Source: a virus
Lineage: Duplodnaviria > Caudoviricetes
Direction: 5' to 3' (one strand)
DNA: 64,000 nucleotides
IMG/VR virus record: IMGVR_UViG_3300037067_025869
Span: 1 to 64,000 of that record
Below are positions 22,917-54,023 of the stretch, one piece after another; positions within the stretch are counted from its first letter, which is position 1; each line of letters starts with the position of its first letter. The position numbers and the translations under genes are program-made. Below the pieces are notes generated by a model. The model saw only the letters and a list, made by a program, of their open reading frames with translations, was not told the DNA's origin and did not search any database.

Positions 22917-23123
22917 TTACTTAACGCCTATTTTTTGCATAAGTTTTTTTACAATATCCCAAGATATGAGGGTTCCATCTTTTCCTAATAGACCTTCTTT
23001 GCCAGCAAAAACCCTTGAAATTCCATCAATTTTGAAACCCTCATAATTATGACCACCCATTTGAATAGTTTCATTAACGGGTTCGTCAATAGATTCTTTT
23101 ACTAGTTTAACGGATTTTTTCAT
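22917..23123 (-). CDS. Small putative virion internal protein
   Basis: N-terminus MKKSVKLVKESIDEPVNE. Confidence 0.7.
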   Translation of the reverse strand: MKKSVKLVKESIDEPVNETIQMGGHNYEGFKIDGISRVFAGKEGLLGKDGTLISWDIVKKLMQKIGVK

Positions 23124-23890
23124 TTTATAGTCTGTTTCATCGAATTTTGATTTTCCTTGGCTTTTTTCTTCTTAAATGGAAGTTTTACCCCCATTTTTTT
23201 AGCTATTGCCACCCCCAATTTATCGTATGGCGAAATATTTGTTTCATTAAGCGATTCTTTAACCAGTTTTACTTTTTTTCTTTTCCTTTTCTTTTTCTGT
23301 TTCTGATTACCGCTTCCCCAGATATCTCCGGATCCTTTAACCCCCGATTGATAAAATTGATTCCCAGTAGTAGCAACTTGCTGAGCTGGTACAGCATTAC
23401 TCATTCCTGGGACACTTCCCGCCCCGGTCATAGGAGCTCCCGTATCTTCATTTATTGGATTTCCTTTTTCGTCATACCCCCAAGCTTTTCTCCGATATTT
23501 TTCTTCATATGGCTGAGAATAAATTTCTCTATTTAGAAAATCATCAATAGCTGATTTATAAGGAGGACTAAAATAATAAGGTCTCCCATTATAATTGATG
23601 AAATCTTCTAATGTAGCCCATGGTTTATTTGTATCCGTACTATAATCCCCTGAATTATCAGCAGTACAACGCATAAGTTTGCTTCTAAGGATATTTTCAA
23701 TATCAAATGGGGTGTATTTTTCTTTTAAAAGCCATCGAATAATCCTCATCCATTCATTATCACTATAGTAAAGACCATAAGAATAAGCCCGATTATCTCC
23801 AGATGTAGTTTTTTTAAAAATAACATTAGCAATACCAATACCCATGGTTTTTTTAGGGTCCTGACCCCGTAAGAATCCTGCTTTAGACAT
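23120..23890 (-). CDS. Hypothetical protein with FxRGxDP leader
   Basis: GFLRGQDPKKTMGIG; internal INE and LVKESLNE sites. Confidence 0.75.
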   Translation of the reverse strand: MSKAGFLRGQDPKKTMGIGIANVIFKKTTSGDNRAYSYGLYYSDNEWMRIIRWLLKEKYTPFDIENILRSKLMRCTADNSGDYSTDTNKPWATLEDFINYNGRPYYFSPPYKSAIDDFLNREIYSQPYEEKYRRKAWGYDEKGNPINEDTGAPMTGAGSVPGMSNAVPAQQVATTGNQFYQSGVKGSGDIWGSGNQKQKKKRKRKKVKLVKESLNETNISPYDKLGVAIAKKMGVKLPFKKKKAKENQNSMKQTIK

Positions 23891-23901: not shown

Positions 23902-24354
23902 TTATGCTCCTCCAAAGGTTGTATGACCGCTGGTTCCACCGCTAGCAAATGCAGTTTTAAGATTTACGGCTTCCATATTTTTCCATGCAACTTGAAGTTT
24001 TCCTTGAACATAGGTAGGGCTAGTTCTCCCATAGAATTTTGCAGAAGCTGCTTTTTCGAGATATTTCTGAAGCATTTCCAATGGAGCTTTTTCCGCCCAT
24101 ACCTTAAGTGTTTTTCTTCCAGCTTCGGGTGAATCAGCAACATAAGTTTTGAGAGCTACCCCCCAGGCAAATTTTCTAACGGATTTTTCATCATCTTTAT
24201 TAAGACTCTCATATTCCTTATTTAAACCCTGAAATGCTTTTTTAAGCCCGGCAACAAAATCATTTACGATTGATTCGGAAACAGCATTCATTTCTTCGTT
24301 TAATTTTGCATAAGCACTCTCATTGAGAGATTCTGCTACTAATTGGATTTTCAT
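23902..24354 (-). CDS. Putative virion internal protein
   Basis: MKIQLVAESLNES leader; late-type motif upstream. Confidence 0.75.
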   Translation of the reverse strand: MKIQLVAESLNESAYAKLNEEMNAVSESIVNDFVAGLKKAFQGLNKEYESLNKDDEKSVRKFAWGVALKTYVADSPEAGRKTLKVWAEKAPLEMLQKYLEKAASAKFYGRTSPTYVQGKLQVAWKNMEAVNLKTAFASGGTSGHTTFGGA

Positions 24355-24415: not shown

Positions 24416-25393
24416 TTATAGATTAAGAGAATCTATTAAGCGAGTTCTAATTTTGCTAATTTTTTGAGCTATTTTAATATTTTCAGGATTATCGTCAAAA
24501 AATGTTATATCATCATATTTGTCTGCTAAGCTTTGTAGAATCTTTCTTTTCTCCTCCGGTATATTAATTTCCCCTTTATCATCACCAATAGTTATAATAT
24601 GATCCTCAGGAATATCAATTCCATTTCTTCTAAAAAAAGTCCAAATAGGTATTTTAGCAATAGCTGATCTAGCTGTAAGTATAAAAATTTCTGAAGTGCT
24701 TCTTCCCTGTTTAATAGCTGCATCCATATTTTGAAGAGCAGGCCACATTTTATATGGTTTTGCTTTTAAAATTATTCTGGGGTCCTTAAATTCAGAAACA
24801 TCTATTTCTTCATCTTCAGCTTTCTGATAAAAATTAAATTCTTCCGGGGTTAATGATTTTAGGAACTTACCTGCTTTATAAACATGAACTTTTGCATCAG
24901 TTTTTACCAAAGTATCATCAAAATCCCAGATATACGCCTTGGTCTTTCTATTTACTGTTTTTGCTCTCATTCTATTTTCTTTAAGAGGAAAAGATTTAAT
25001 TTTTTCTATTTGTTCTTTAATTTTTTCAAGTCTTCGAACAGTTCTCCATTCATGATTAGCATCAGCATTTTTAATTGCCCCCTCAAGGTCTGCTCCTCTT
25101 TTTTGAATTATATGTATTGCTACCTCGTCATTTTTTTCCCAAGCTAAAACTTTCAATATTTCATGCTCCTGAGAATTTATATCAAGGCCTTGCGATAAAA
25201 GATAATCCATAAGATCAGATCTTTTTGCTGTAGCACAACTAATGAAATATCCTATTTCGTCCATGCTTTCAGTATTTTTCTCTTGAGATTTAGCCAATTG
25301 TTTAATTTGACCCATCATTCCTATGCCAATAGCATTTTTTGGATCTATGTCTCGGCTAAAATTCAATACTTCGCTGATAATTATAGCTCTCAT
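24416..25393 (-). CDS. FxRGxDP-leader, ankyrin-like + HAD phosphatase fusion
   Basis: NFSRDIDPKNAIGIG; LLSQGLDIN and KRGADL ankyrin-like turns; WDFDDTL, ILTAR, FFDDN HAD motifs. Confidence 0.75.
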   Translation of the reverse strand: MRAIIISEVLNFSRDIDPKNAIGIGMMGQIKQLAKSQEKNTESMDEIGYFISCATAKRSDLMDYLLSQGLDINSQEHEILKVLAWEKNDEVAIHIIQKRGADLEGAIKNADANHEWRTVRRLEKIKEQIEKIKSFPLKENRMRAKTVNRKTKAYIWDFDDTLVKTDAKVHVYKAGKFLKSLTPEEFNFYQKAEDEEIDVSEFKDPRIILKAKPYKMWPALQNMDAAIKQGRSTSEIFILTARSAIAKIPIWTFFRRNGIDIPEDHIITIGDDKGEINIPEEKRKILQSLADKYDDITFFDDNPENIKIAQKISKIRTRLIDSLNL

Positions 25394-25475: not shown

Positions 25476-26918
25476 TTATAGTTTATCAACGATCTTCTGA
25501 GCAACTTTATCAGCAATTTTATCTGCTAAAGTATCAGCTGGAGCATCCATTACATCTGCCGGGCCTTCTGTAGCCTCTTCAAGATCAAGTGAGAAATCAT
25601 CGGATTTTTCCCCCGCTTCTTCGCCATCTCCAAGATCAAGGTCAAAATCCTCTGTTCCTTCTTCGTCTTCTCCCTCCTCGCCTTCGGGTTTTTCTTCATC
25701 TTCTACTTCAATTTCACCGCCAAACATTTCTTCAACGTCTACGCCTTTTTCCTCAAGCCACCCTTTGAGTTTTTCCCAGTAGTCAACAGAAACTTTAATC
25801 TTTTCTTCTGTGGTAGGTTCCTCTTCACCTTCGGCTGCTTCTCCTAAATCGGGACTTTCTGTATGTTTTTCTTCGTCTTCGTCTTCTTTTTCTTCGCTTT
25901 CTGTATTTTCTTCTTTTTCTTTTTCATCTTCAACTTTTTCAGCAGGAACTCCAAGTTCATCGAGTTCTTTGACTGCTTCTTCAGCATTAGTTACAGTGAT
26001 AATGAACTCTGTAATTTCTACCTTTTCGTCTTCAGATTCTTCACCTTCTGGTTTTTCTTCTTTTTCTTCGCCCTCTTCACCTTTAGATTCTTCTTCTTTT
26101 TCTTCTTCACCGCCGAGATCTAAATCATCAAATGAGAGTTCGTCCTCCTCTTTCTTTTCTTCTTCAGCTTCATTTATCTTTTTACCACCTTTTTCTTCTG
26201 GAAATTTGGAAAATTCATTTTCGTCTTTATCCTGTTCTGGCTCTAATTGATTATGAAGATTTTTATCAAGTTTACCATCTAATTTATCTTTTCTTTTTTC
26301 AGTTCTAGCAATAGGATCTTTTCCCATAATTTCAGCTTTTTCAGTAAGTTCTTGAGCTCTCTTAGCCTTTATTCTTTCAATGATAGCTTCAATTTTAGCT
26401 TTTCTAAATTCGATGATAGATTCTTTACATTCGCATTTTTCTTTTTCCTTTCCGCATGTTTCGCATTCTTCTTCCCCTTCGGTACCATCATAAATGCCTT
26501 TTCTAGGATAACCTTTCTTAGTATCTACAAAATCATAATCATCTTTGATCTCTGTTTTCTTTTCCGTAAGAGGGGTGGAGACAAAACGATCAGCTAATCT
26601 TTTACCTACTGGTGATAATTTGAAGAATGCTTGCCCTTCTTTAGATTCAGCTACAAAGAACTGAGAATTTCTTTTTAACCACATAATAGCAGAAGCATTT
26701 GGATTTTTACTACATTCATTTAAGTCAGCAATAAATCTTTTTAATTTCCCCTTAGATACACGCTGATTTTCAGCTACATAAGCGAGAACCTGATTCCTAA
26801 TTGGAGCATTAACTCCAACTACTACTGGTTTTTTTTCACCATATCCCCTTTTAAGTGTTATAGATTTTGACTCATTTAAATATTGATCAAGAGTCATTGG
26901 AACATAATTCATTTTCAT
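25476..26918 (-). CDS. Highly acidic protein, scaffold or internal-protein-like
   Basis: MTLDQYLNES leader; Glu/Asp-rich C-terminal half; several LxE sites. Confidence 0.75.
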   Translation of the reverse strand: MKMNYVPMTLDQYLNESKSITLKRGYGEKKPVVVGVNAPIRNQVLAYVAENQRVSKGKLKRFIADLNECSKNPNASAIMWLKRNSQFFVAESKEGQAFFKLSPVGKRLADRFVSTPLTEKKTEIKDDYDFVDTKKGYPRKGIYDGTEGEEECETCGKEKEKCECKESIIEFRKAKIEAIIERIKAKRAQELTEKAEIMGKDPIARTEKRKDKLDGKLDKNLHNQLEPEQDKDENEFSKFPEEKGGKKINEAEEEKKEEDELSFDDLDLGGEEEKEEESKGEEGEEKEEKPEGEESEDEKVEITEFIITVTNAEEAVKELDELGVPAEKVEDEKEKEENTESEEKEDEDEEKHTESPDLGEAAEGEEEPTTEEKIKVSVDYWEKLKGWLEEKGVDVEEMFGGEIEVEDEEKPEGEEGEDEEGTEDFDLDLGDGEEAGEKSDDFSLDLEEATEGPADVMDAPADTLADKIADKVAQKIVDKL

Positions 26919-27872: not shown

Positions 27873-29663
27873 TTATTTTCGAAGTATCTTGCCATTCCAG
27901 GTCTTCCATTCACTTTGAAAGGAATCCCATAATCCCCATATACTTTGGGGGGTTACTGTCTTAAAAGTAACAAAATCCATATCTTCAATAGCTCTAAATG
28001 CATGAAATTGATCCTTATTTTCCAATTCCCCAATATTTAGATTCTTTTCCACAGCAATTCTTTCATCCATAACTTCTTCTTCAAAATAAAGTTGCAAAGA
28101 TAATTCGCTTTTCTTTGTTGAATCCGTTATAATTACAATAGGTTCATATTTAGGCCGGACAGTATCAAAAATACTATATAAATCCCAGTCATTTAATAGA
28201 AAGAATGCGGGGACAACATCTTTGTTAGAATTAGCAAATGCTTTCATTTGAGCCCGGACAAGACCATCCGTAAAGAAAAAATTCTCTCCCCTAACTCTTC
28301 TGGAATTGCCTACGGAAACAATAATTACAGGACATTTCCACATATTTTGAATTGAGCGTATATTATCCTCCTGAGATTTTGTAAATGGTTTGAAATCTGT
28401 AATATAAATAGCACATTTTTCTAATCCGGGTTTTCCTTTTTTCCCTTTAGGCTCAAAAGTTTTCTGGATAGAAGCAATAACTCTCATATTATCAACATCA
28501 GAAGCGACCTTTCTAGCTATAGCATCTACAACAATATTATCAGATTTTTCAGTAATCATTTGGGTATCAGCAAATGGGCTCTCCCGAATAGGGTTAAGAA
28601 TTTTCTCGCTTATTAGATAAACATAACTATTAAATTTATTAATGGCTGATTCATTAAGAAGACCATATTCTTTTTTATACTTTCGAAGAGAGGAAAGTAT
28701 AACTCTAAATATAGACTCATAAAGTTTTCCCCCGCTTTCAAGAAGTTCAAGGGTTTTTTTATTTTTGATTAATAATAGATTTAATCCTCCAGCATATCCA
28801 AAATTAGGAGGGGTAAGATATTCCGGCTTCATCCCTTCCGTAACAGAAGGACTTTCACAATAATGATTAAATATATCACACACTATTTCTAGATACATAT
28901 CATCGGGATTTTTGCCTTCCAATATGGGAAACGGGTATCTTTCTAGAAAATTATTAAGGCTTAATATTGTAAGATCATAAAAATCCCTAGAGAATTCAGC
29001 TTTTTGATAAGACTCATTCAAAAGTTCAAATTCATAAGAAACAATTTGAGCTAATCTTTCCCCGTCTGAAATTATAATTCCTTCAATAATATTTTGTTTA
29101 GAATAAGTTCCATTGAATCTATTGATTAGAAGTTCGCTTAAATTATCTTCGATATTATCATAGTCCCCATTAGCATATTCCAATAGAGCTTTCTTTTGTT
29201 CCTTGGATAATTTGCCCTTAAATATTACAGGGGGTCTTCCTAGTTGAAGTATTTCAGCCCACTGTTGTAATTCATTATAATCAAAAGATTCAACAACTTT
29301 ATTATTTTTTCTACGAGTTATATCTGTAATAAGATATTTTGGCAGTTTAGTATAGGGAATTCTTATTGGCCTTTCAACCGGTGTATAAGCTAATCCGAAA
29401 CAAATTCCTTCTGGTATCTTTGCTTCATTCAAAATAATGGAAAGCTCTATAATAGCATCCTCCCAAACATTGGTGAGAACTCTTGAAATTAATCCTAACT
29501 CTGTATTATCTTTCTTATAGAATTTAATTTCCCCATTTACATTTTCAAAAAGAATTCTATAAGTATCGAGTTTTTCAGTAATGATTAGTTCTTCATTTAG
29601 AAATTCATCAACGTACTTAGATCCATTTTTTTGTAAAATCTTCTGTAACGTATTTAATGCCAT
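27873..29663 (-). CDS. RNA-ligase-like domain fused to degenerate HIGH-type nucleotidyltransferase domain
   Basis: TEKLDT (motif I variant), EGIII, AQIV; C-terminal YITDFKPFTKSQ. Confidence 0.6.
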   Translation of the reverse strand: MALNTLQKILQKNGSKYVDEFLNEELIITEKLDTYRILFENVNGEIKFYKKDNTELGLISRVLTNVWEDAIIELSIILNEAKIPEGICFGLAYTPVERPIRIPYTKLPKYLITDITRRKNNKVVESFDYNELQQWAEILQLGRPPVIFKGKLSKEQKKALLEYANGDYDNIEDNLSELLINRFNGTYSKQNIIEGIIISDGERLAQIVSYEFELLNESYQKAEFSRDFYDLTILSLNNFLERYPFPILEGKNPDDMYLEIVCDIFNHYCESPSVTEGMKPEYLTPPNFGYAGGLNLLLIKNKKTLELLESGGKLYESIFRVILSSLRKYKKEYGLLNESAINKFNSYVYLISEKILNPIRESPFADTQMITEKSDNIVVDAIARKVASDVDNMRVIASIQKTFEPKGKKGKPGLEKCAIYITDFKPFTKSQEDNIRSIQNMWKCPVIIVSVGNSRRVRGENFFFTDGLVRAQMKAFANSNKDVVPAFFLLNDWDLYSIFDTVRPKYEPIVIITDSTKKSELSLQLYFEEEVMDERIAVEKNLNIGELENKDQFHAFRAIEDMDFVTFKTVTPQSIWGLWDSFQSEWKTWNGKILRK

Positions 29664-35895: not shown

Positions 35896-36402
35896 TTATT
35901 TACCATTTAATAAGTTTTCTATATCAATTCTATTTTTTATCCCAAATATTATAGAATCCAAGGATTTTATTGTTTCAGATATAAACTTGGAATGGTTTTC
36001 GATTTGCTCTTTTAAGAAAACAGTTGGAGATAAATCAGCTAAAATTTGAATTTCTTTTACCTTTTCATTAGGAAATCTCTTTTGAGATTTGTAAGTATAA
36101 AAATCATATTTTTCGGTAAATTGCTTACGATAAGTTTTTCCTATTTTATACAGGAGAGACATTAAATAATGATAATATTCAACAGCACGTTGACGCTCTG
36201 TATAAATGTTTGTCATTAATTCAGCAACGTCAGGAAGTCTCTTCATCATAGTTGACATATTCTTTACTTTTTCAGTCCACTCTACTCTTTCCTTAGCAAA
36301 GCGAACTTCCATAGTATCTTCCCTCTCTTTATTTTCGGGAGGATTCTCTTTTATAAATTCGTCAAAAGAGTCCGGAATTATAGGTTGAAGTATCTCGTCC
36401 AT
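35896..36402 (-). CDS. uvsY: UvsY-like recombination mediator
   Basis: Helical protein ending TIKSLDSIIFGIKNRIDIE; lies between primase and uvsW. Confidence 0.55.
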   Translation of the reverse strand: MDEILQPIIPDSFDEFIKENPPENKEREDTMEVRFAKERVEWTEKVKNMSTMMKRLPDVAELMTNIYTERQRAVEYYHYLMSLLYKIGKTYRKQFTEKYDFYTYKSQKRFPNEKVKEIQILADLSPTVFLKEQIENHSKFISETIKSLDSIIFGIKNRIDIENLLNGK

Positions 36403-39315: not shown

Positions 39316-39654
39316 TTACATTGATAAATATTCCTCCATTTTTCTTTTTGCTTGCCCCAGTTTAGGAAAAGTATTCTGAGCTCCCCTTTCCCCTTCTTTA
39401 CTCCAAGCTGCAATATAATATTCTAAACCCGAATCTACCCATGCTAAGTGATATCCTGTTGCATCTAATGATATAGATACCACTACTATTTCAAGGTCAG
39501 GATCTTTTTCTGTTTTATCATCAGTTATTCGAGGATTTAGATTTGGGTTAATTTCTTTAAAAGCTGCTATAAGTTTTTGTGCTTCTCTAGCATGTTTATT
39601 CCCAATATTCATCGAATCTTTAGGATCTACCCCCCTTACAAACTGCGCTCTCAT
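39316..39654 (-). CDS. Hypothetical protein with FxRGxDP leader
   Basis: MRAQFVRGVDPKDSMNIG. Confidence 0.75.
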   Translation of the reverse strand: MRAQFVRGVDPKDSMNIGNKHAREAQKLIAAFKEINPNLNPRITDDKTEKDPDLEIVVVSISLDATGYHLAWVDSGLEYYIAAWSKEGERGAQNTFPKLGQAKRKMEEYLSM

Positions 39655-39968
39655 TATAATAAAAGAAGTTCTATTTTTTTAACGAAAGATTGTTTATTTC
39701 CAGCGCCAATTTTAGTATCAAATACTTCTCCTTTTTTTATAAAAAAAACAGAAGGTATACTTTTTATTTTGTATTTTTCGCATAATTCAGGATTTTCATC
39801 TACATTACATCTAACTATTTTTACTTCATTTCTATATTCTTTTGATAAATCCTCTAAAATGGGGGAAATAATTCTGCAAGGGCCGCACCAGTCAGCTTCG
39901 AATTTAATGATTAAGTTTGGAGCATTTTTTATGATTTCATCGTAATTTTTATTGGTTAATTCTTCCAT
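39654..39968 (-). CDS. trxA: Thioredoxin
   Basis: FEADWCGPC, NVDENP, IKSIPS. Confidence 0.95.
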   Translation of the reverse strand: MEELTNKNYDEIIKNAPNLIIKFEADWCGPCRIISPILEDLSKEYRNEVKIVRCNVDENPELCEKYKIKSIPSVFFIKKGEVFDTKIGAGNKQSFVKKIELLLL

Positions 39969-40059: not shown

Positions 40060-40296
40060 TCATTTCATTTGCATTCCATATCCGTATTTAGAAGATTCGG
40101 GTGTCCAAGTAGCCTTAACCCCGGTTTCTAGGGAGCTAAGAGCTTTATAAACTCTTGACCTTCCCCCATACTCTTTGACTATTCTGTCAAAAATTGATTT
40201 AAGCTGAGCTTTAGCTTGATCAAGTTGTCTTTCGTGAAATCTTCCGAGTTCCATAGAATCCATTGGATCTACTCCTCTTACAAAGCGAGCATTCAT
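40060..40296 (-). CDS. Small protein with FxRGxDP leader
   Basis: MNARFVRGVDPMDSMELG. Confidence 0.7.
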   Translation of the reverse strand: MNARFVRGVDPMDSMELGRFHERQLDQAKAQLKSIFDRIVKEYGGRSRVYKALSSLETGVKATWTPESSKYGYGMQMK

Positions 40297-41510
40297 TCTT
40301 TGTCTCTTCCAAAGCGGAAGAAGCTGATTATTTTAAGTAGAGGAAGATAACTTCCAGTAAGTTTAAATAATTTTCCTTCATAATTGAAAACAACCCCCTC
40401 TATTGGTGCTATCGAGTCGAATCCCCCCGCTCTAAGAAATCTTTCATATTGAGCTTTTAGAAACTTGGATTTTTCTCCACGGTATTCACTCATCTTATTT
40501 ATCGCATCATCAGTTTTATCTATTATGGATTTTTGGGCTTTTGAAGGGTCGGAAGAAGCTATATTCTCCGAATTTAATAGTACTTTTGATCCAACTCTAG
40601 AAAATATTTCAATTATTTGTTCCAAAAATACTGTTCGGATACTATCTATATTTTTATCTGTTTCTTTTACCCATTTAACGGTTTGCTGATTTTTTCCAGC
40701 TAAAAGTTTAGTAATAGATGTTGATTTATCCAGATATGCCCATCTTCGAATAAGACTTTTTATTAGGTTAAAATCCCTTTCCCTAATTTTTGAAAATTCG
40801 AAATCGATAAAATCCCAGAATTCAATTGCTAAAAAATCTTCAATAGTATTTCTTTCTGCCAGATTAAAATTTTCCATCAGGGAATCCAGATCTTTTAAAA
40901 ATTCTGTAGGATCCATAAATTTAAGTGAAACCTTATTAGTCTTATCGATTTCAAAAGTTTTTGAAATTCCCTCTTGAGCAACTTTTATTAGTTTCAATAA
41001 TGGGTCAAAATTAATATCTATAACCCCATTTTCAGTTTGCACATTATGAATTCGGAGTTGATTTTTATTATATGGAATAATATTTTCCATTAAAGGTGTC
41101 AACAATTCCATATTCAGCCAATATTTTCCATTTAGAAAGAAATTTTGAAGAATTTCTTCATCTATAGTAAATAAAACGTTTTGTAAATCCTTTGCGGCGG
41201 TTGAATAAGCTTCTCGGGATTCTAGAGTTTTCATATATTCTCCCACCAGATCCCAGCGCATCGCTTCAGCACCGTTATCCCGGACTTGTTTTAGGGAACG
41301 AGCAATATAGACATGACCGCTCTTATAAGTTGCTAGAATATTTACCCCATCCAATTTTTCTTTTGCATTCTCTAAAGTACCTAAACACGATTTAATGATA
41401 ATCTCTCTAATCTGTCCAAATGTTAAATCCATATTCTCCCATGGAGATTGGATATGTCCTGCTGCACCGCTCATATATTTTTTCCGATTAATTTTTCCAT
41501 TATTTTTCAA
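40293..41510 (-). CDS. RNA-ligase-like nucleotidyltransferase
   Basis: GAAGHI, EKLDG motif I, LNMEL, IEGVV motif IV, FKLTG motif V. Confidence 0.7.
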   Translation of the reverse strand: MKNNGKINRKKYMSGAAGHIQSPWENMDLTFGQIREIIIKSCLGTLENAKEKLDGVNILATYKSGHVYIARSLKQVRDNGAEAMRWDLVGEYMKTLESREAYSTAAKDLQNVLFTIDEEILQNFFLNGKYWLNMELLTPLMENIIPYNKNQLRIHNVQTENGVIDINFDPLLKLIKVAQEGISKTFEIDKTNKVSLKFMDPTEFLKDLDSLMENFNLAERNTIEDFLAIEFWDFIDFEFSKIRERDFNLIKSLIRRWAYLDKSTSITKLLAGKNQQTVKWVKETDKNIDSIRTVFLEQIIEIFSRVGSKVLLNSENIASSDPSKAQKSIIDKTDDAINKMSEYRGEKSKFLKAQYERFLRAGGFDSIAPIEGVVFNYEGKLFKLTGSYLPLLKIISFFRFGRDKE

Positions 41511-41555
41511 TGATATATTGACAAATTTGGATTGTCGCCGCCATTATGGTTCCTG

Positions 41556-41876
41556 CTAAATAAGCCGCAGCGATCTAAACCAATTTAAAATCCTATTTTT
41601 TTTAGTCTGAGGATAAAACCAGCTTCCTGTAATTAAAAACACAATTGGCAATCCGATGAGCATTAGCAACATTAAAATAATTGCAAAGGGTAGTGTAAAT
41701 CTCAGCCATGTTTTTACAGGGGTTTCATTTTCGGTATAAAAATCAATACCTAATAAAATCCATCTATCACACATTTCTTCGCTTGAAACTTTCTTAAGCT
41801 CTGGAAATGTTTCTTTGAATTTTGGTATGTAGTTCATATCATTATGAGACCATACTCGTTTTAATTTCCTGTACAT
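41556..41876 (-). CDS. Membrane protein
   Basis: Hydrophobic helix FAIILMLLMLIGLPIVFLITG. Confidence 0.7.
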   Translation of the reverse strand: MYRKLKRVWSHNDMNYIPKFKETFPELKKVSSEEMCDRWILLGIDFYTENETPVKTWLRFTLPFAIILMLLMLIGLPIVFLITGSWFYPQTKKNRILNWFRSLRLI

Positions 41877-41926
41877 TTTTATCTAATTTTAGGTTAACAA
41901 TTTAATTAAAAAACACGAAACCAAAG

Positions 41927-42766
41927 TTATTTTTTACGTGTCCAAGTTTTCTTTGTCTCATTCCATTCCCAATCTTTGAGAGGTTCTTCATCCTCGTCTT
42001 CATCTTCTTCCTCCGTAATAGGAAATTGGGATTTATAATTATATCCTGCTTGATAGCGATCATATCCTAATGGGGAACTTTCTGATGGGGTTCCAGATGT
42101 ATGTAAAGCTTCGGTAACTTGATCCGCAGCAACGTCAGATTCTGGTAAACTAATATTTTGTTCCAGAGTATCCCAAACGAATGAAACTTGTTCTTCTGTT
42201 GAGTCAGGGTATCCTGTCATAAAATTTTCTAAATCGCCATTAATTAAATCTTGTCTTAGAACACTTGCAGAGATAGGTTCGCCTTCATGTTCATCTGTTC
42301 TACCTTTGAATCTTAAAGGCTCAATATTGACAGGCAATTCAACTATATTGATTCCCCTTCTATAAAATTTGCCTTCTAAAGAATGTTTCCAAGCAAAATC
42401 TGAAATTCTTTTAGCATTTTCTTCTTCCTTGCTGGAAGCTGCTAAAGTATATTGACCCGGATCTGCTTCTTGAACAATCTTATAAGCTGCTAATATTGGA
42501 GAAGCCCAAGGAACTGCTTCGATTGTTGCTTTTTTAATATTTTCAGTTAGTTTTTCAATCATTTTTACAGCTATATTTTGGGTGATTCCCCCTCGAACAC
42601 CTGGCCCAACAAGAATTCTGATTTCTTCAACTTCAGGAAGTTCGGCATATTTTTTAATAAGGTCAATATGCCCGCCGCTACACGGTTTAAAACTCCCCGG
42701 AAATAAAACTATTACGTTTTTAACTTCTGATTTTTTATTCATAAATTTGAATTTTTTATATCGCAT
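41927..42766 (-). CDS. HIGH-type (cytidylyltransferase/NMNAT-like) nucleotidyltransferase
   Basis: LFPGSFKPCSGGH, ISASVLR; acidic tail. Confidence 0.75.
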   Translation of the reverse strand: MRYKKFKFMNKKSEVKNVIVLFPGSFKPCSGGHIDLIKKYAELPEVEEIRILVGPGVRGGITQNIAVKMIEKLTENIKKATIEAVPWASPILAAYKIVQEADPGQYTLAASSKEEENAKRISDFAWKHSLEGKFYRRGINIVELPVNIEPLRFKGRTDEHEGEPISASVLRQDLINGDLENFMTGYPDSTEEQVSFVWDTLEQNISLPESDVAADQVTEALHTSGTPSESSPLGYDRYQAGYNYKSQFPITEEEDEDEDEEPLKDWEWNETKKTWTRKK

Positions 42767-43635
42767 TTTTTTAAAACTTCATTTGGTAGGGGAAGATTTT
42801 GCTCCTCTATGCACTCGATAAATCTATTAATGATATCTGCTCGTTTATTTATCCATTTAAAATTAGGGGACATAACTATATGCCATAGCTTTTCAAATGT
42901 ATCAATATCTGATGGAATAAACTGGCTTCCCACAGTCAGATCTAAAATTTCCATAGGTTGATCTGTAACAAAATATTCGGATCCATTGACATTCGTTCCA
43001 CCCTTAACCAATTTTCCTTTCTTCCCCATAAAATTTTTGCGAACCCTCCAAACCCCCCACGGAAATTTAAGTATGTTTACTTCGATTTCTTCTATTCCCC
43101 CTATATCAGTAAACTTAATTATTTCTTTTTTTGATTCTGTAATAATAGCCATTAAAAGAATATTTCGATAAAATCCTTTGTATTCAGATTCCCCTTTGCG
43201 AAAATCCGGAGAATGATAAATGAATTCTGACCACTCGAGATTGTGTGTTATCATAAAATCCACTTGAACAATCCCCATTTCATGATTCCCTGCAATAGGA
43301 CAGCCGAAGGAAACAATTCTAAATCCATAATTAATAGCTGAATCAAATCCCAGTGTTTCTAATTGATGCTGCAGCATATTTAATTCAGTATTTTTAGGAA
43401 AAGAATTGGGGTCTGGTTTAAGAAGAACGGCAATATCAATATCCCCATAAATTTCCCCGTCTTTTTTCTTTCCATAAGAACCCAATAATTCAATATCCTG
43501 TTCTCTGATTAGTAAATGCCGAAGAACATTTTCTTTTAGCCATTTAACTGTTTCTTGAGCTTCGTCAAAAGTAACCGGACGAGAAGTTTTAATTGCATTC
43601 CCTCCCATGATAATATTTTTTACAAATATACACAA
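42739..43635 (-). CDS. Pol-beta-superfamily nucleotidyltransferase
   Basis: LLGSYGKK...GDIDIAV, third Asp in VQVDFM; likely start MGGNA at 43608. Confidence 0.75.
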   Translation of the reverse strand: MCIFVKNIIMGGNAIKTSRPVTFDEAQETVKWLKENVLRHLLIREQDIELLGSYGKKKDGEIYGDIDIAVLLKPDPNSFPKNTELNMLQHQLETLGFDSAINYGFRIVSFGCPIAGNHEMGIVQVDFMITHNLEWSEFIYHSPDFRKGESEYKGFYRNILLMAIITESKKEIIKFTDIGGIEEIEVNILKFPWGVWRVRKNFMGKKGKLVKGGTNVNGSEYFVTDQPMEILDLTVGSQFIPSDIDTFEKLWHIVMSPNFKWINKRADIINRFIECIEEQNLPLPNEVLKKCDIKNSNL

Positions 43636-43655
43636 AAATGGGATAAGTTTTATTC

Positions 43656-43937
43656 TTATCCCGTTATGATTTCGTTAAACCCCCATTCTTGAAAGCTTTC
43701 GAATGCTTGTTTTTGGGTGGGTTGTAAATCCCTTTGGAGAATACTGATTAATTTCATGGAAGGCTTTCGAACTAATTCCCCTTGCGTCTGATATATCTTA
43801 GGATCTACTTTACCTAAATATTTCCAACGCATAAGTTGATTAGGAGTAATGTGAACTTGATAAAGATCCTCTCCTTTTAAAACAGTATGGGAATAAATGT
43901 AATTTCCCCTATTTTTGTATATTTGGAGGTAAGGCAT
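43656..43937 (-). CDS. Hypothetical protein
   Basis: 93-aa ORF overlapping the upstream gene. Confidence 0.6.
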   Translation of the reverse strand: MPYLQIYKNRGNYIYSHTVLKGEDLYQVHITPNQLMRWKYLGKVDPKIYQTQGELVRKPSMKLISILQRDLQPTQKQAFESFQEWGFNEIITG

Positions 43938-44538
43938 CTTCTTTTGGAGCTTCTTTTTTAACTAGATTAACTACCTTTCGAGAGGTTTTGTCTGGATCTT
44001 TATCTTTATTGGGATGCCAGGAATAAACCCCTTTCGTAAATGTAATCTGGAAAGGCTCCCGAAGCTCCCTTTTATATTTTCCCCCCTTACCTGATAAAAC
44101 ATAGGCAAGAGTGAGATGAGGATGAAATTCAGGGAAAGTCTGGGTATTTGGAATTTGCATAAAAAGATCCCGATATTTTTGTAATTGACCGGTTAGAGGA
44201 ACATTATATTTTACAACATCATATTCTTTTCCGGGAAAAACATCAACTTCCTTGATTGTAACGGTTACCGGTTTCATATAGTATTCAATTAGATCGGCCA
44301 TCCTCTGAGGATCAACTTCTTTTTCGTGGATGCCATAAAGAATTGTTACGTGGGGTTGTTCTTCCAACCCATAGGAATCATCATAAGGTTTTAAATAAAT
44401 ATCTTCCCTTTCAATTCCTGCTGTATGAAATTCTGTCCAATTTTTTATATCGGCATCCATCATAACACAGCCAAATTTTTCATCATTAGCTGAAGTGTCG
44501 GATTCATTTAACCATTGCAAAAAACTTTGAAATTTCAT
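43909..44538 (-). CDS. 2H phosphoesterase, Acb1/gp57B-like
   Basis: Two HxT motifs: PHVTILYG and PHLTLAY; leader MKFQSFLQWLNE. Confidence 0.8.
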   Translation of the reverse strand: MKFQSFLQWLNESDTSANDEKFGCVMMDADIKNWTEFHTAGIEREDIYLKPYDDSYGLEEQPHVTILYGIHEKEVDPQRMADLIEYYMKPVTVTIKEVDVFPGKEYDVVKYNVPLTGQLQKYRDLFMQIPNTQTFPEFHPHLTLAYVLSGKGGKYKRELREPFQITFTKGVYSWHPNKDKDPDKTSRKVVNLVKKEAPKEDALPPNIQK

Positions 44539-53522: not shown

Positions 53523-54023
53523 ATGAAAGCAAAGACTATACAAGAAGCACTTAATGAATTTGGGGGAGCAGGTTATGCAGTATACGGCGGCGCTGCTAAT
53601 TATGGCAATCCCGGACGAGGAATTGGTTTTGGCCAAAGCTCCCAGAATAAAGGAGGTCCAAATTTAATGTACACCTATGATGTTAAGGATTTAAATCAAG
53701 CATTGCAACCCCCTCCAACTACTCAAGGAGAAGAAAAATACATACATATTGGTTCTCATGTTAAAGCTAAATCATTGGAATCAGAAAAATGGGTAGAAGG
53801 AAATATACTTTCTACTAAATTTGATGCGGATGGAAATATCCTTCATTATGAGGTTTTAAATCCTGCATCAGGACAATCTGAAAAAGTAGATCCTACCTCA
53901 ATTGAACTTATTGAAAATGATCTGCTTCCCGGGTTAGCAACTTTAGATAGAGATATCGTGGGAGAATCTCTTTTTGTCTCCGAATCCATAGAGCAATTAT
54001 ATGAAAATAAAAAAAGAGGCTAA
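53523..54023 (+). CDS. Putative internal protein
   Basis: MKAKTIQEALNEFGG leader; SH3-like middle. Confidence 0.7.
   Translation: MKAKTIQEALNEFGGAGYAVYGGAANYGNPGRGIGFGQSSQNKGGPNLMYTYDVKDLNQALQPPPTTQGEEKYIHIGSHVKAKSLESEKWVEGNILSTKFDADGNILHYEVLNPASGQSEKVDPTSIELIENDLLPGLATLDRDIVGESLFVSESIEQLYENKKRG

Follow-up and report, generated by a model that had tools for sequence, protein, structure and literature searches.

Three predicted nucleotidyltransferases and a 2H phosphoesterase in a large uncultured phage: a possible RNA-end repair module

Introduction

What might a phage do with an RNA-ligase-like enzyme, a HIGH-type nucleotidyltransferase, a Pol-beta-type nucleotidyltransferase and a 2H phosphoesterase that are encoded side by side? 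The question is raised by positions 40293-44538 of a 64,000-nucleotide stretch of Caudoviricetes DNA (IMG/VR record IMGVR_UViG_3300037067_025869, positions 1 to 64,000), to which we refer as the window. We find that the three transferases form a conserved core, with the 2H enzyme as a lineage-specific fourth member, and we give an about even chance to the view that the region is a phage RNA-end repair module, directed most likely against host ribonucleases that cut tRNA or other RNA. This view draws on sequence, predicted folds and gene context. The four enzymes, encoded on the minus strand like every gene of this finding, are:

40293-41474, minus strand: LIG1, an RNA-ligase-like covalent (lysyl-NMP) nucleotidyltransferase of 393 residues (motifs I, III, IV and V; AlphaFold2 model; fold search)
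41927-42766, minus strand: a HIGH-superfamily (cytidylyltransferase-like, PPAT/NMNAT-like) nucleotidyltransferase, the N-terminal half of a split HIGH-ligase protein (motifs; phrog_3041; profile against PDB)
42739-43608, minus strand: a Pol X-like nucleotidyltransferase of the Pol-beta superfamily, 289 residues (GS, DxD and D motifs; AlphaFold2 model; Foldseek; VIA)
43909-44538, minus strand: a 2H phosphoesterase of 209 residues with a leader resembling the T4 capsid-targeting sequence, MKFQSFLQWLNE/S (PF13563; PF02834; two HxT motifs; phrog_755; here and below a slash marks the predicted protease site)

A first-pass annotation, made from the sequence alone, had placed these four enzymes here. 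This stands: the catalytic motifs of all four are intact, and with motif conservation across hundreds of homologues and concordant folds the observation goes far beyond chance.

Results

LIG1 is predicted to be a covalent nucleotidyltransferase

The open reading frame (ORF) of LIG1 was listed as 40293-41510, but its true start is probably ATG 41474, since homologues begin M-[AS]-G-[AS]-A-G-H. The protein is recognised neither by Pfam and PHROGs nor by PDB searches with the single sequence or a profile, and its family occurs on at least 452 viral contigs. It carries the motifs EKLDG, EGVVF and KLFKLTG. Motif I thus has the KxDG form with the catalytic lysine that defines the covalent nucleotidyltransferase superfamily, and motifs III (E123), IV (E359-G360) and V (K371) are present in order on a nucleotidyltransferase fold; H7, E39, K40, D42, G43, R59, E123, E359, G360 and K371 are invariant over the 33 homologues that were scored.

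LIG1 and the Pol-beta protein are the two enzymes with confident structural models (pLDDT 93-94). In the AlphaFold model of LIG1, built on an alignment (pLDDT 94.2), a helical domain of about 165 residues (about 190-354) lies between motifs IIIa and IV, and the chain ends some 20 residues past motif V in a single helix, without an OB-fold domain after that motif. Only covalent nucleotidyltransferases top the lists of a Foldseek search and of two VIA searches, and in the unbiased VIA search of 48,161 chains the top 13 are all ligases, the first eight of them RNA ligases. VIA aligned the model with NgrRnl, an RNA ligase of Naegleria (Z 8.5, root-mean-square deviation (r.m.s.d.) 4.4, 183 residues), T4 Rnl1 (Z 8.0, r.m.s.d. 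4.0, 176 residues), Rnl2 (Z 7.9), Trl1 (Z 7.9, 202 residues) and REL1 (Z 7.4); DNA ligases score from Z 7.3 down to 5.1 and capping enzymes from 5.8 to 5.1. The consistency of this list, together with the order of the motifs, makes the assignment of the modelled fold to the covalent nucleotidyltransferases safe. A preference for RNA over DNA is only suggestive; it is helped by the missing OB domain and by weak matches of the RNA_ligase family PF09414 to 14 of the 33 homologues (best 2.1e-4; the window protein itself is unmatched), this being their commonest Pfam match and the sole ligase family among them.

Several more specific identities were rejected. LIG1 does not fit a DNA ligase or capping enzyme, as it lacks the OB fold and those classes score lower (Z 7.3-5.1). 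In T4 Rnl1 a C-terminal helical tRNA-binding domain follows motif V; the helical domain of LIG1 instead precedes motif IV, which sets it outside the T4 Rnl1 family. Nor is LIG1 the replicative ligase, since four of five large related contigs have a ligase of the LigA type.

The HIGH gene and LIG1 as halves of a split protein

The HIGH protein contains GSFKPCSGGH and ISASVLR, corresponding to the motifs GxFxPxxxGH and ISxxxxR of the HIGH/cytidylyltransferase-like superfamily (PF01467), and G24, F26, P28, H33, S166, A167 and R171 are invariant over the 16 domains scored. PF01467 itself matches homologues at 2e-14 and 1.7e-7, and against PDB the profile of the family finds PPAT at 1.9e-6 and the adenylyltransferases of nicotinic acid mononucleotide (NaMN) and nicotinamide mononucleotide (NMN) at about 2e-3. 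Curated models of single functions remain far below their equivalog cut-offs: TIGR01510 reaches 26.4 bits (5.6e-6) against a cut-off of 103.3, and NadD/NMNAT models reach 17-24 bits against 112-240, so we rejected an identity as PPAT (CoaD) or as an NMN/NaMN adenylyltransferase proper. Because it matches the motifs and profile of the superfamily, yet scores so low in every curated family, we take the protein from its sequence to be a divergent superfamily member. Its gene probably starts at an alternative ATG (42742) that overlaps the stop codon of the Pol-beta gene (ATGA).

About half of the LIG1 homologues are around 660 residues long, and 57 of the 116 database homologues have a HIGH domain fused to the ligase domain. 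In one of them (P0034), residues 1-235 are 52% identical to the HIGH protein of the window, a relationship that the first-pass annotation had missed. Among the 80 ligase-anchored loci described below, nearly all those uncut by a contig end have the ligase domain behind a HIGH domain; the reverse order (P0114, P0245) and a HIGH-ligase-HIGH form (L018) also occur, and Microcystis phage Mel-JY01 carries a HIGH-ligase fusion that is annotated merely as 'cytidylyltransferase like'. Since relatives carry both domains as one polypeptide, the HIGH and LIG1 genes of the window are, judged by sequence, the fission product of a widespread two-domain phage protein. One further gene has been inserted exactly between the two halves:

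41556-41876, minus strand: a single-pass (one-helix) membrane protein of 106 residues (phrog_36118, 3.2e-32; hydrophobic helix)

It is absent from this place in the closest relatives (L086, L088), where the HIGH and ligase genes abut, and probably stands outside the enzyme system. Considered as a thioredoxin, the ORF was rejected in favour of the membrane protein.

The PPAT/NMNAT-like character of the HIGH protein bears on the proposal that the function is centred on NAD, with the HIGH enzyme acting as an NMN adenylyltransferase that either replenishes NAD+ when defences deplete it or supplies a partner that uses NAD. The profile matches to NaMN/NMN adenylyltransferases (about 2e-3), the use of NAD-dependent LigA by related phages and the fusion of a P-loop kinase to a HIGH domain in one relative, which recalls NadR, speak for it. 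We nevertheless judge it very unlikely, given that the best matches are to PPAT and all scores lie far below the equivalog cut-offs, that the Pfam-annotated neighbour ORFs include no nicotinamide phosphoribosyltransferase or Nudix partner, that Tpt1 is absent, and that NAD salvage leaves the constant ligase-like partner unexplained.

A Pol X-like enzyme without an 8-kDa domain

The third transferase was listed from TTG 43635 (42739-43635); its 289 residues are counted from ATG 43608. It contains GS...DIDIAV, and G43, S44, D56, D58 and D117 are invariant across homologues, giving the G[SG] motif, the DxD motif and the third acidic palm residue that define the Pol-beta superfamily. Searches of PDB with the single sequence or a profile gave no meaningful match, but PF14792 (DNA_pol_B_palm) matches 10 of 33 homologues. 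The AlphaFold2 model (pLDDT 92.8) retrieves Cid1, Pol beta, Pol lambda and TdT by Foldseek (probability 1.00, E about 2e-4), and VIA superimposes it on Pol beta over its palm and fingers (residues 104-334; Z 10.5, r.m.s.d. 3.7, 173 residues aligned) and on Pol lambda (Z 10.3). All four of these enzymes extend the 3' ends of polynucleotides, and Cid1 is an RNA uridylyltransferase. A counterpart of the 8-kDa domain (Pol beta 1-87) is absent from the 289-residue protein. We rejected an identity as RlaP: the list of 18 families that 33 members match at E <= 1 does not include PF10127, the RlaP family. As a functional analogue from outside that family, the Pol X-like enzyme would resemble RlaP in gene context and proposed role alone.

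Immediately upstream lies a small ORF:

43656-43937, minus strand: an ORF of 93 residues (BLASTP clustering with the Pol-beta family; matches the N-terminal extension of Pol-beta in some relatives)

In those relatives the extension is joined to Pol-beta through an ...ALNE/GGNAI site; P0147 (381 residues), for example, begins MAYLQIYKNR... like the 93-residue ORF and continues into ...WKALNE-GGNAI. Comparison ruled out that the ORF is the missing C-terminus of longer 2H proteins.

These structural matches give substance to a rival view, in which the genes serve to repair the DNA of the phage genome or process its ends, and the Pol X-like polymerase and the ligase fill and seal nicks, gaps and breaks, perhaps on injected DNA. 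Structurally, the Pol-beta enzyme comes closest to the palm and fingers of a DNA polymerase, the DNA_pol_B_palm family recognises part of its homologues, and the DNA ligase of African swine fever virus is among the fold matches of LIG1 (Z 7.3); moreover, the genes lie in a replication and recombination region (gp32, UvsW, UvsY-like), and the capsid leaders described below would set the enzymes beside DNA. With no fixed kinase, no Tpt1 and no nearby tRNA genes, DNA nick or gap repair stays a real rival. We still hold it to be unlikely, since LIG1 lacks an OB domain, RNA ligases outrank every DNA ligase in its fold searches, PF09414 is the sole ligase family found among its 33 homologues, and related phages already have a DNA ligase of the LigA type; in addition, 2H enzymes act on ribose 2',3'-cyclic phosphates, and relatives show fusions to a tRNA CCA-adding enzyme and a neighbouring HAD phosphatase of RNA repair.

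The 2H phosphoesterase

The 2H protein shows the two H-x-[TS]-x motifs of its family, HVTI and HLTL, and passes two family models, PF13563 (2_5_RNA_ligase2; 3.3e-8, 34.2 bits against a cut-off of 27) and PF02834 (LigT_PEase; 23.9 bits against 23.3). A sequence search of PDB gave no match. An identity as Acb1 (PF23474) was rejected at 20.4 bits (4.6e-4) against a cut-off of 27. A 2H homologue is present in 13 of the fetched loci, in each case directly upstream of the Pol-beta gene and with the same type of leader. In two of the closest relatives (L087:8980-9906 and L088:7276-8238) the 2H ORF extends about 98 residues further upstream with a GNAT-like RRQGxGSRL motif, and the capsid-targeting-like leader is internal to the ORF, between this extension and the 2H part.

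It is conceivable that the locus is instead a variable block of independent counter-defence proteins, with an Acb1-like 2H protein that degrades cyclic-nucleotide immune signals and with transferases that have nucleotide signals or other small molecules as their substrates. The 2H gene joins the others in one subclade only, its match to Acb1 is weak (4.6e-4), the neighbourhoods of relatives are full of unrelated ORFs with the same leader (seven upstream of Pol-beta in L142), and a survey of polyvalent proteins never saw its injected 2H domains alongside RNA ligases and suggested different functions (PMC5512222). Set against this are the Acb1 score, which falls below its cut-off while the general 2H/LigT models pass, the linkage of the transferases, which are fused in either order and stand in varied gene arrangements, and the polynucleotide-extending fold of the Pol-beta enzyme, among whose listed matches there is no cGAS/CD-NTase or small-molecule transferase; on balance we consider such a block improbable.

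Gene neighbourhoods and domain fusions in related phages

The window is contained in a 74,849-bp IMG/VR contig, whose CheckV completeness of 18% makes it a fragment of a very large phage. It encodes a gp32-like single-stranded DNA-binding protein, a UvsW helicase, a split family-B polymerase and a ribonucleotide reductase, and has a GC content of about 31%. A type-IX secretion sorting domain in one of its proteins suggests that the host belongs to the Bacteroidota. A blastn search of the region against 50,697 phage records gave no match.

Whether the enzymes co-occur across phages, a check that the first-pass annotation had named, was surveyed within a radius of 10 kb in 60 viral loci anchored on Pol-beta and in the best 80 viral loci, mostly of one clade, anchored on the ligase. 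The outcome depends on the anchor gene. Around Pol-beta, a HIGH gene is found in 52 of the 60 loci, LIG1 in 37, a second ligase-like family (LIG2, see below) in 31 and a 2H gene in 10. There are at least six gene orders, among them ligase-HIGH-Pol-beta-LIG2 (n = 18), 2H-Pol-beta-[HIGH+ligase] (n = 5) and ligase-Pol-beta-LIG2 followed by a HIGH match (n = 3). The 2H gene is confined to the window's own subclade, where it is always directly upstream of Pol-beta, and an iterated search for more distant 2H genes in the remaining Pol-beta loci found none. The three transferases, with HIGH and ligase fused in most relatives, thus pass the co-occurrence check, and the proposed cluster of four is to be redrawn: since the transferases co-occur broadly and the 2H gene in the window's subclade alone, we are dealing with a conserved three-enzyme core and a lineage-specific fourth member rather than with a four-enzyme unit.

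In the ligase-anchored loci, the fusion gene mostly lies just upstream of genes for a T4-type terminase, portal and S77 prohead protease. Two phages outside these patterns may be mentioned: the genes flanking the Pol-beta homologue of Sinorhizobium phage Phosso are not homologous to the ligase or the HIGH protein, and in the Lak phages, which are recoded, the Pol-beta and HIGH homologues lie about 100 kb apart.

Rare larger fusions and neighbouring genes supply the evidence that bears on function. In L063:652-5643, a protein of 1663 residues, the head and RNA-binding region of a CCA-adding enzyme (head: PF01743, 2.8e-31; CCA enzymes in PDB, 1e-29) are fused to the ligase, with about 870 unassigned residues between them. 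A single protein of 1517 residues (L134:2-4555) combines HIGH, a CCA-adding head, an HD domain and the Pol-beta family, and another of 1142 residues (L085:851-4279) an AAA_33 kinase, HIGH and ligase. Furthermore, in one clade a gene for HAD_SAK_2, the 'Swiss-army-knife' phosphatase of RNA repair, lies some 5 kb away from that for Pol-beta. In L133:10001-11899, DUF6267 (PF19782, 1e-42) is fused behind a Pol X-like domain and shows KIDG and EG...K motifs by eye; hhalign against the LIG1 profile gives no support, and DUF6267 may be another unrecognised ligase-like family.

A second ligase-HIGH copy and neighbouring genes in the window

A paralogue of the split protein, outside the region discussed so far, and a protein linked to it by context are encoded elsewhere in the window:

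27873-29663, minus strand: LIG2-HIGH2, a fused ligase-like and HIGH-like paralogue of 596 residues (hhalign; HIGH profile; neighbourhood)
25476-26918, minus strand: a protein of 480 residues beginning MKMNYVPMTLDQYLNE (BLASTP links; a part of about 110 residues is homologous to the ORF after LIG2 in many related loci)

LIG2-HIGH2 went undetected in BLASTP and hidden Markov model searches with the LIG1 and HIGH profiles. Its motifs are eroded in the window, where motif I reads KLDT and TKSQ replaces the HIGH motif, but some relatives retain intact motifs such as GRFQPFTLGH. The family aligns over its full length with P0245, a protein of 558 residues (hhalign 99.95%, 1e-38) in which Pfam calls RNA_ligase PF09414 (27.2 bits, at the cut-off of 27) and CTP_transf_like. 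While the C-terminal domain matches the HIGH profile (95%, 2.7e-8), the N-terminal domain reaches an hhalign probability of merely 6.5% against the ligase motif I region, so its ligase nature follows from the full-length homologue P0245 and not from a direct alignment with LIG1. In many relatives a LIG2 homologue comes directly after the Pol-beta gene and is followed by a relative of the 480-residue protein, which has no Pfam match and, by its sequence, may be a further member of the module.

In the same block, the ORF at 24416-25393 (minus strand) has a weak HAD-hydrolase match (PF00702, 2e-4, below the cut-off), and its product could be a phosphatase partner. It is also one of four minus-strand ORFs (40060-40296, 39316-39654, 23120-23890 and 24416-25393) that share the N-terminal motif F-[VL]-R-G-x-D-P-x-x-[ST]-M-x-[IL]-G, as in MNARFVRGVDPMDSMELG, MRAQFVRGVDPKDSMNIG and MSKAGFLRGQDPKKTMGIG; possibly the motif is a shared tag of a second type. 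The thioredoxin that had been reported next to the enzymes is real, though only loosely placed:

39654-39968: thioredoxin (PF00085, 8e-27)

Further away, between a GIY-YIG endonuclease gene and an ORF of 378 residues, 35896-36402 (minus strand) has a weak UvsY-like match (PF11056, 1e-3) and is kept in 26 related loci.

Capsid-targeting leaders in the enzymes of relatives

Members of all four enzyme families in related phages carry T4-type leaders with [ILV]-x-E protease sites. In T4, the gp21 prohead protease cuts after L/I-x-E (PMC9026906), the first 10 residues of IPIII suffice to target proteins, including fused foreign ones, to the head, from which the cargo is delivered into the host (PMC9026906; PMC3012670), and the remaining internal proteins share this leader or have one like it (PMC9026906).

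Among 120 Pol-beta homologues, 92 have a leader, usually of 13-14 residues, that ends [ILVM]-x-E right before the start of the conserved domain (typically MKYVKLFEQFINE/SGNA... or MRFQSLKEWISINE/GG...), and a further 24, including that of the window, start directly at M-GGNA. The HIGH-ligase fusions have the N-terminus MSFKxxxKWINE in 43 of 57 cases and [ILV]-x-E/GGxxGH exactly at the domain junction in 40 of 57, a site that coincides with the point at which the HIGH and ligase genes of the window are split. In Microcystis phage Mel-JY01, the 639-residue protein WWT39297.1 shows the leader MGKLINILLSE and the junction IIAE/GGLGGH. Standalone ligase, HIGH and 2H proteins of relatives bear the same type of leader. 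Leaders of relatives such as MKYVKLFEQFINE/, MRFQSLKEWISINE/ and MKHVKTFESFIFE/ end [ILV]-x-E at the start of the mature domain and are similar to MKTYQEFIAE, the T4 leader. Four of five related large contigs, like the ligase-anchored loci, encode a T4-type S77 prohead protease, which was not found in the 74.8-kb contig (18% complete). From the leaders, the [ILV]-x-E cleavage sites and the S77 protease of relatives, we infer that in most relatives these enzymes are probably capsid cargo, which would be cut into single domains and enter the host along with the DNA.

Of the four enzymes of the window, the 2H protein alone has kept a leader (MKFQSFLQWLNE/S); the ligase, HIGH and Pol-beta proteins have none. 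Here the genes of the three transferases have the look of normal cytoplasmic genes with coupled translation, which is a lineage-specific change. Leaders ending ...LNE like that of the 2H protein are found in three further ORFs of the window, 25476-26918 (minus strand, MKMNYVPMTLDQYLNE), 23902-24354 (minus strand, MKIQLVAESLNE) and 53523-54023 (plus strand, MKAKTIQEALNE), whose products are candidate capsid-targeted proteins by this feature of their sequence. In one relative (L142:357-9704), seven ORFs unrelated in sequence lie just upstream of Pol-beta and all share one 13-residue leader (MKNIPTFENFVNE...); such runs of leader-bearing neighbours, up to seven ORFs long, also occur in L106, L111, L114, L094 and L097. 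These runs are putative large arrays of capsid-targeted cargo genes in uncultured giant phages.

Injection into the host would also be compatible with protein nucleotidylation, one of the functions first proposed for this locus, in which ligase-like or Pol-beta enzymes AMPylate or NMPylate host proteins. The injected proteins of T4 include the host-modifying Alt (PMC9026906), and the Pol-beta transferases of polyvalent proteins have been proposed to modify proteins (PMC5512222). The folds, however, match polynucleotide polymerases and RNA ligases and not protein AMPylators, and the fusions to CCA-adding enzymes point to RNA, which leaves this function with hardly any probability in our estimate.

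Discussion

Our results favour, at about even odds, RNA repair, and probably tRNA repair, as the purpose of the module, on account of the fusions with CCA-adding enzyme, HD, P-loop kinase and PF09414 domains and of the neighbouring HAD_SAK_2. Of the purposes suggested at the outset, RNA or tRNA repair has gained from this evidence, and nothing was found that supports regeneration of NAD or nucleotide signals, or protein nucleotidylation. A survey of jumbo phages describes the 'syntax' of RNA repair as a ligase combined with the nucleotidyltransferase RlaP, end-healing 2H, HD or HAD enzymes and a CCA-adding enzyme (PMC7824862), and RlaP extends the 3' ends of damaged RNA by 1-2 nucleotides (PMC12776372). 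By analogy, the 2H enzyme would open 2',3'-cyclic phosphate ends, the Pol X-like enzyme would restore nucleotides lost from the 3' end, as RlaP does, and the ligase would seal 3'-OH to 5'-phosphate ends. The part of the HIGH enzyme is a matter of speculation. HIGH superfamily enzymes nucleotidylate a phosphate or carboxylate, and 5'-adenylylated RNA (AppRNA) shares its A-5'-pp-5'-N linkage with NAD+; for these reasons the enzyme might transfer a nucleotide to a terminal phosphate, for example by making or reversing the AppRNA intermediate.

Several observations weigh against RNA repair or against a common function. The fold scores of LIG1 (Z 8.0-8.8) lie in what VIA itself rates as a middling range, with a margin over DNA ligases of just 1-3 Z units, and for the Pol-beta enzyme it is a DNA polymerase that matches best in fold. 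There is no consistent 5' kinase, as AAA_33 is absent from the 75-kb contig and far from the module in relatives, Tpt1 is absent from the same contig and from all five related large contigs, and tRNA genes were found neither in the window nor in 32 related loci; a complete heal-and-seal path for breaks with 5'-OH and 2',3'-cyclic-phosphate termini is therefore not visible. We also know of no RNA repair system that uses a HIGH enzyme, and found none in the literature searched. As to the linkage of the genes, most ligase-anchored loci have no Pol-beta gene within 10 kb, the fusion standing alone beside head genes, and in the main ligase-anchored clade the 2H gene is likewise not within 10 kb. 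Finally, many Pol-beta-anchored loci share the synteny of gp32 and UvsW with the window, so that part of the co-occurrence reflects common descent. The rearranged gene orders and the fusions nevertheless argue for a functional link among the transferases besides descent.

Defence systems that cut RNA, anticodon nucleases and HEPN or PIN effectors among them, are widespread, and known phage answers include T4 Pnkp/Rnl1 and RtcB or RlaP systems. Our analysis adds two enzyme families without a Pfam model, the ligase on at least 452 viral contigs and the Pol X-like family, each present on many viral contigs, and an unexpected partner, the HIGH transferase, found joined to RNA-ligase-like domains on either side and in two paralogous lineages. 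It raises the biochemical question of what a PPAT/NMNAT-like enzyme does at an RNA end. The leaders suggest delivery of ready-made enzymes by the virion, which, if true, would make RNA repair a pre-emptive rather than an expressed counter-defence, and they flag large numbers of proteins of uncultured giant phages as candidates for injection. In a bolder version of this idea, to which we attach a low probability, huge T4-like phages would pack and inject an RNA-repair kit in which the HIGH partner of the ligase performs or proofreads the reaction ATP + pRNA <-> AppRNA + PPi (compare NMN -> NAD+), ligation being divided between two nucleotidyltransferase folds.

The general kind of system, phage RNA repair, is already known. 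The literature searched, to which the 2016 NAR survey of RNA repair did not belong, contained no description of a HIGH-RNA ligase fusion, of the ligase family or of the Pol X-like family, and nothing relevant on RNA ligases with capsid-targeting leaders, on DUF6267 or on phage Mel-JY01. Burroughs and Aravind have reportedly surveyed the modular RNA repair systems of prokaryotes and phages. With such systems (T4 Pnkp and Rnl1; a ligase with RlaP and healing enzymes) the module shares a KxDG ligase-like enzyme, a linked Pol-beta transferase and a 2H esterase, to which relatives add a CCA-adding enzyme, HD, P-loop kinase and HAD phosphatase. It differs from them in that its ligase has no Pfam model and a helical domain before motif IV, its Pol-beta partner is Pol X-like and not RlaP, the constant fused partner of the ligase is a HIGH transferase, no kinase or phosphatase is fixed, and relatives bear capsid-targeting leaders. 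The tRNA ligase Trl1 of fungi and plants, which unites ligase, kinase and 2H cyclic phosphodiesterase and works with Tpt1, is similar in its ligase fold (Z 7.9) and its combination with a 2H enzyme, but the module has no kinase domain, and the five related large contigs have no Tpt1.

Single components have closer or more distant counterparts elsewhere. The minimal base-excision repair pair of African swine fever virus, Pol X and a DNA ligase, likewise places a minimal palm and fingers without an 8-kDa domain beside a ligase, whereas the ligase studied here is nearer to RNA ligases, lacks DNA-binding and OB domains and occurs in an RNA-related context. PPAT (CoaD), NadD, NadM and NadR share GxFxPxxxGH and ISxxxxR with the HIGH protein, which scores far below their cut-offs and is fused to a ligase domain rather than to a Nudix domain or ribosylnicotinamide kinase. 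Acb1, the anti-CBASS protein gp57B of T4, has the same 2H fold and two HxT motifs and also belongs to a T4-like phage; the 2H protein of the window remains under the Acb1 cut-off (20.4 versus 27 bits), and its gene is directly upstream of Pol-beta in all 13 loci that have it. The internal proteins and Alt of T4, lastly, are the model for the leaders, which in relatives of the module end [ILV]-x-E at the start of the mature domain, in contigs that encode a T4-type portal, terminase and S77 protease. Here the leaders are 3-4 residues longer and packaging is predicted from sequence, and the cargo would consist of RNA-end enzymes, in place of the small basic proteins and the ADP-ribosyltransferase of T4.

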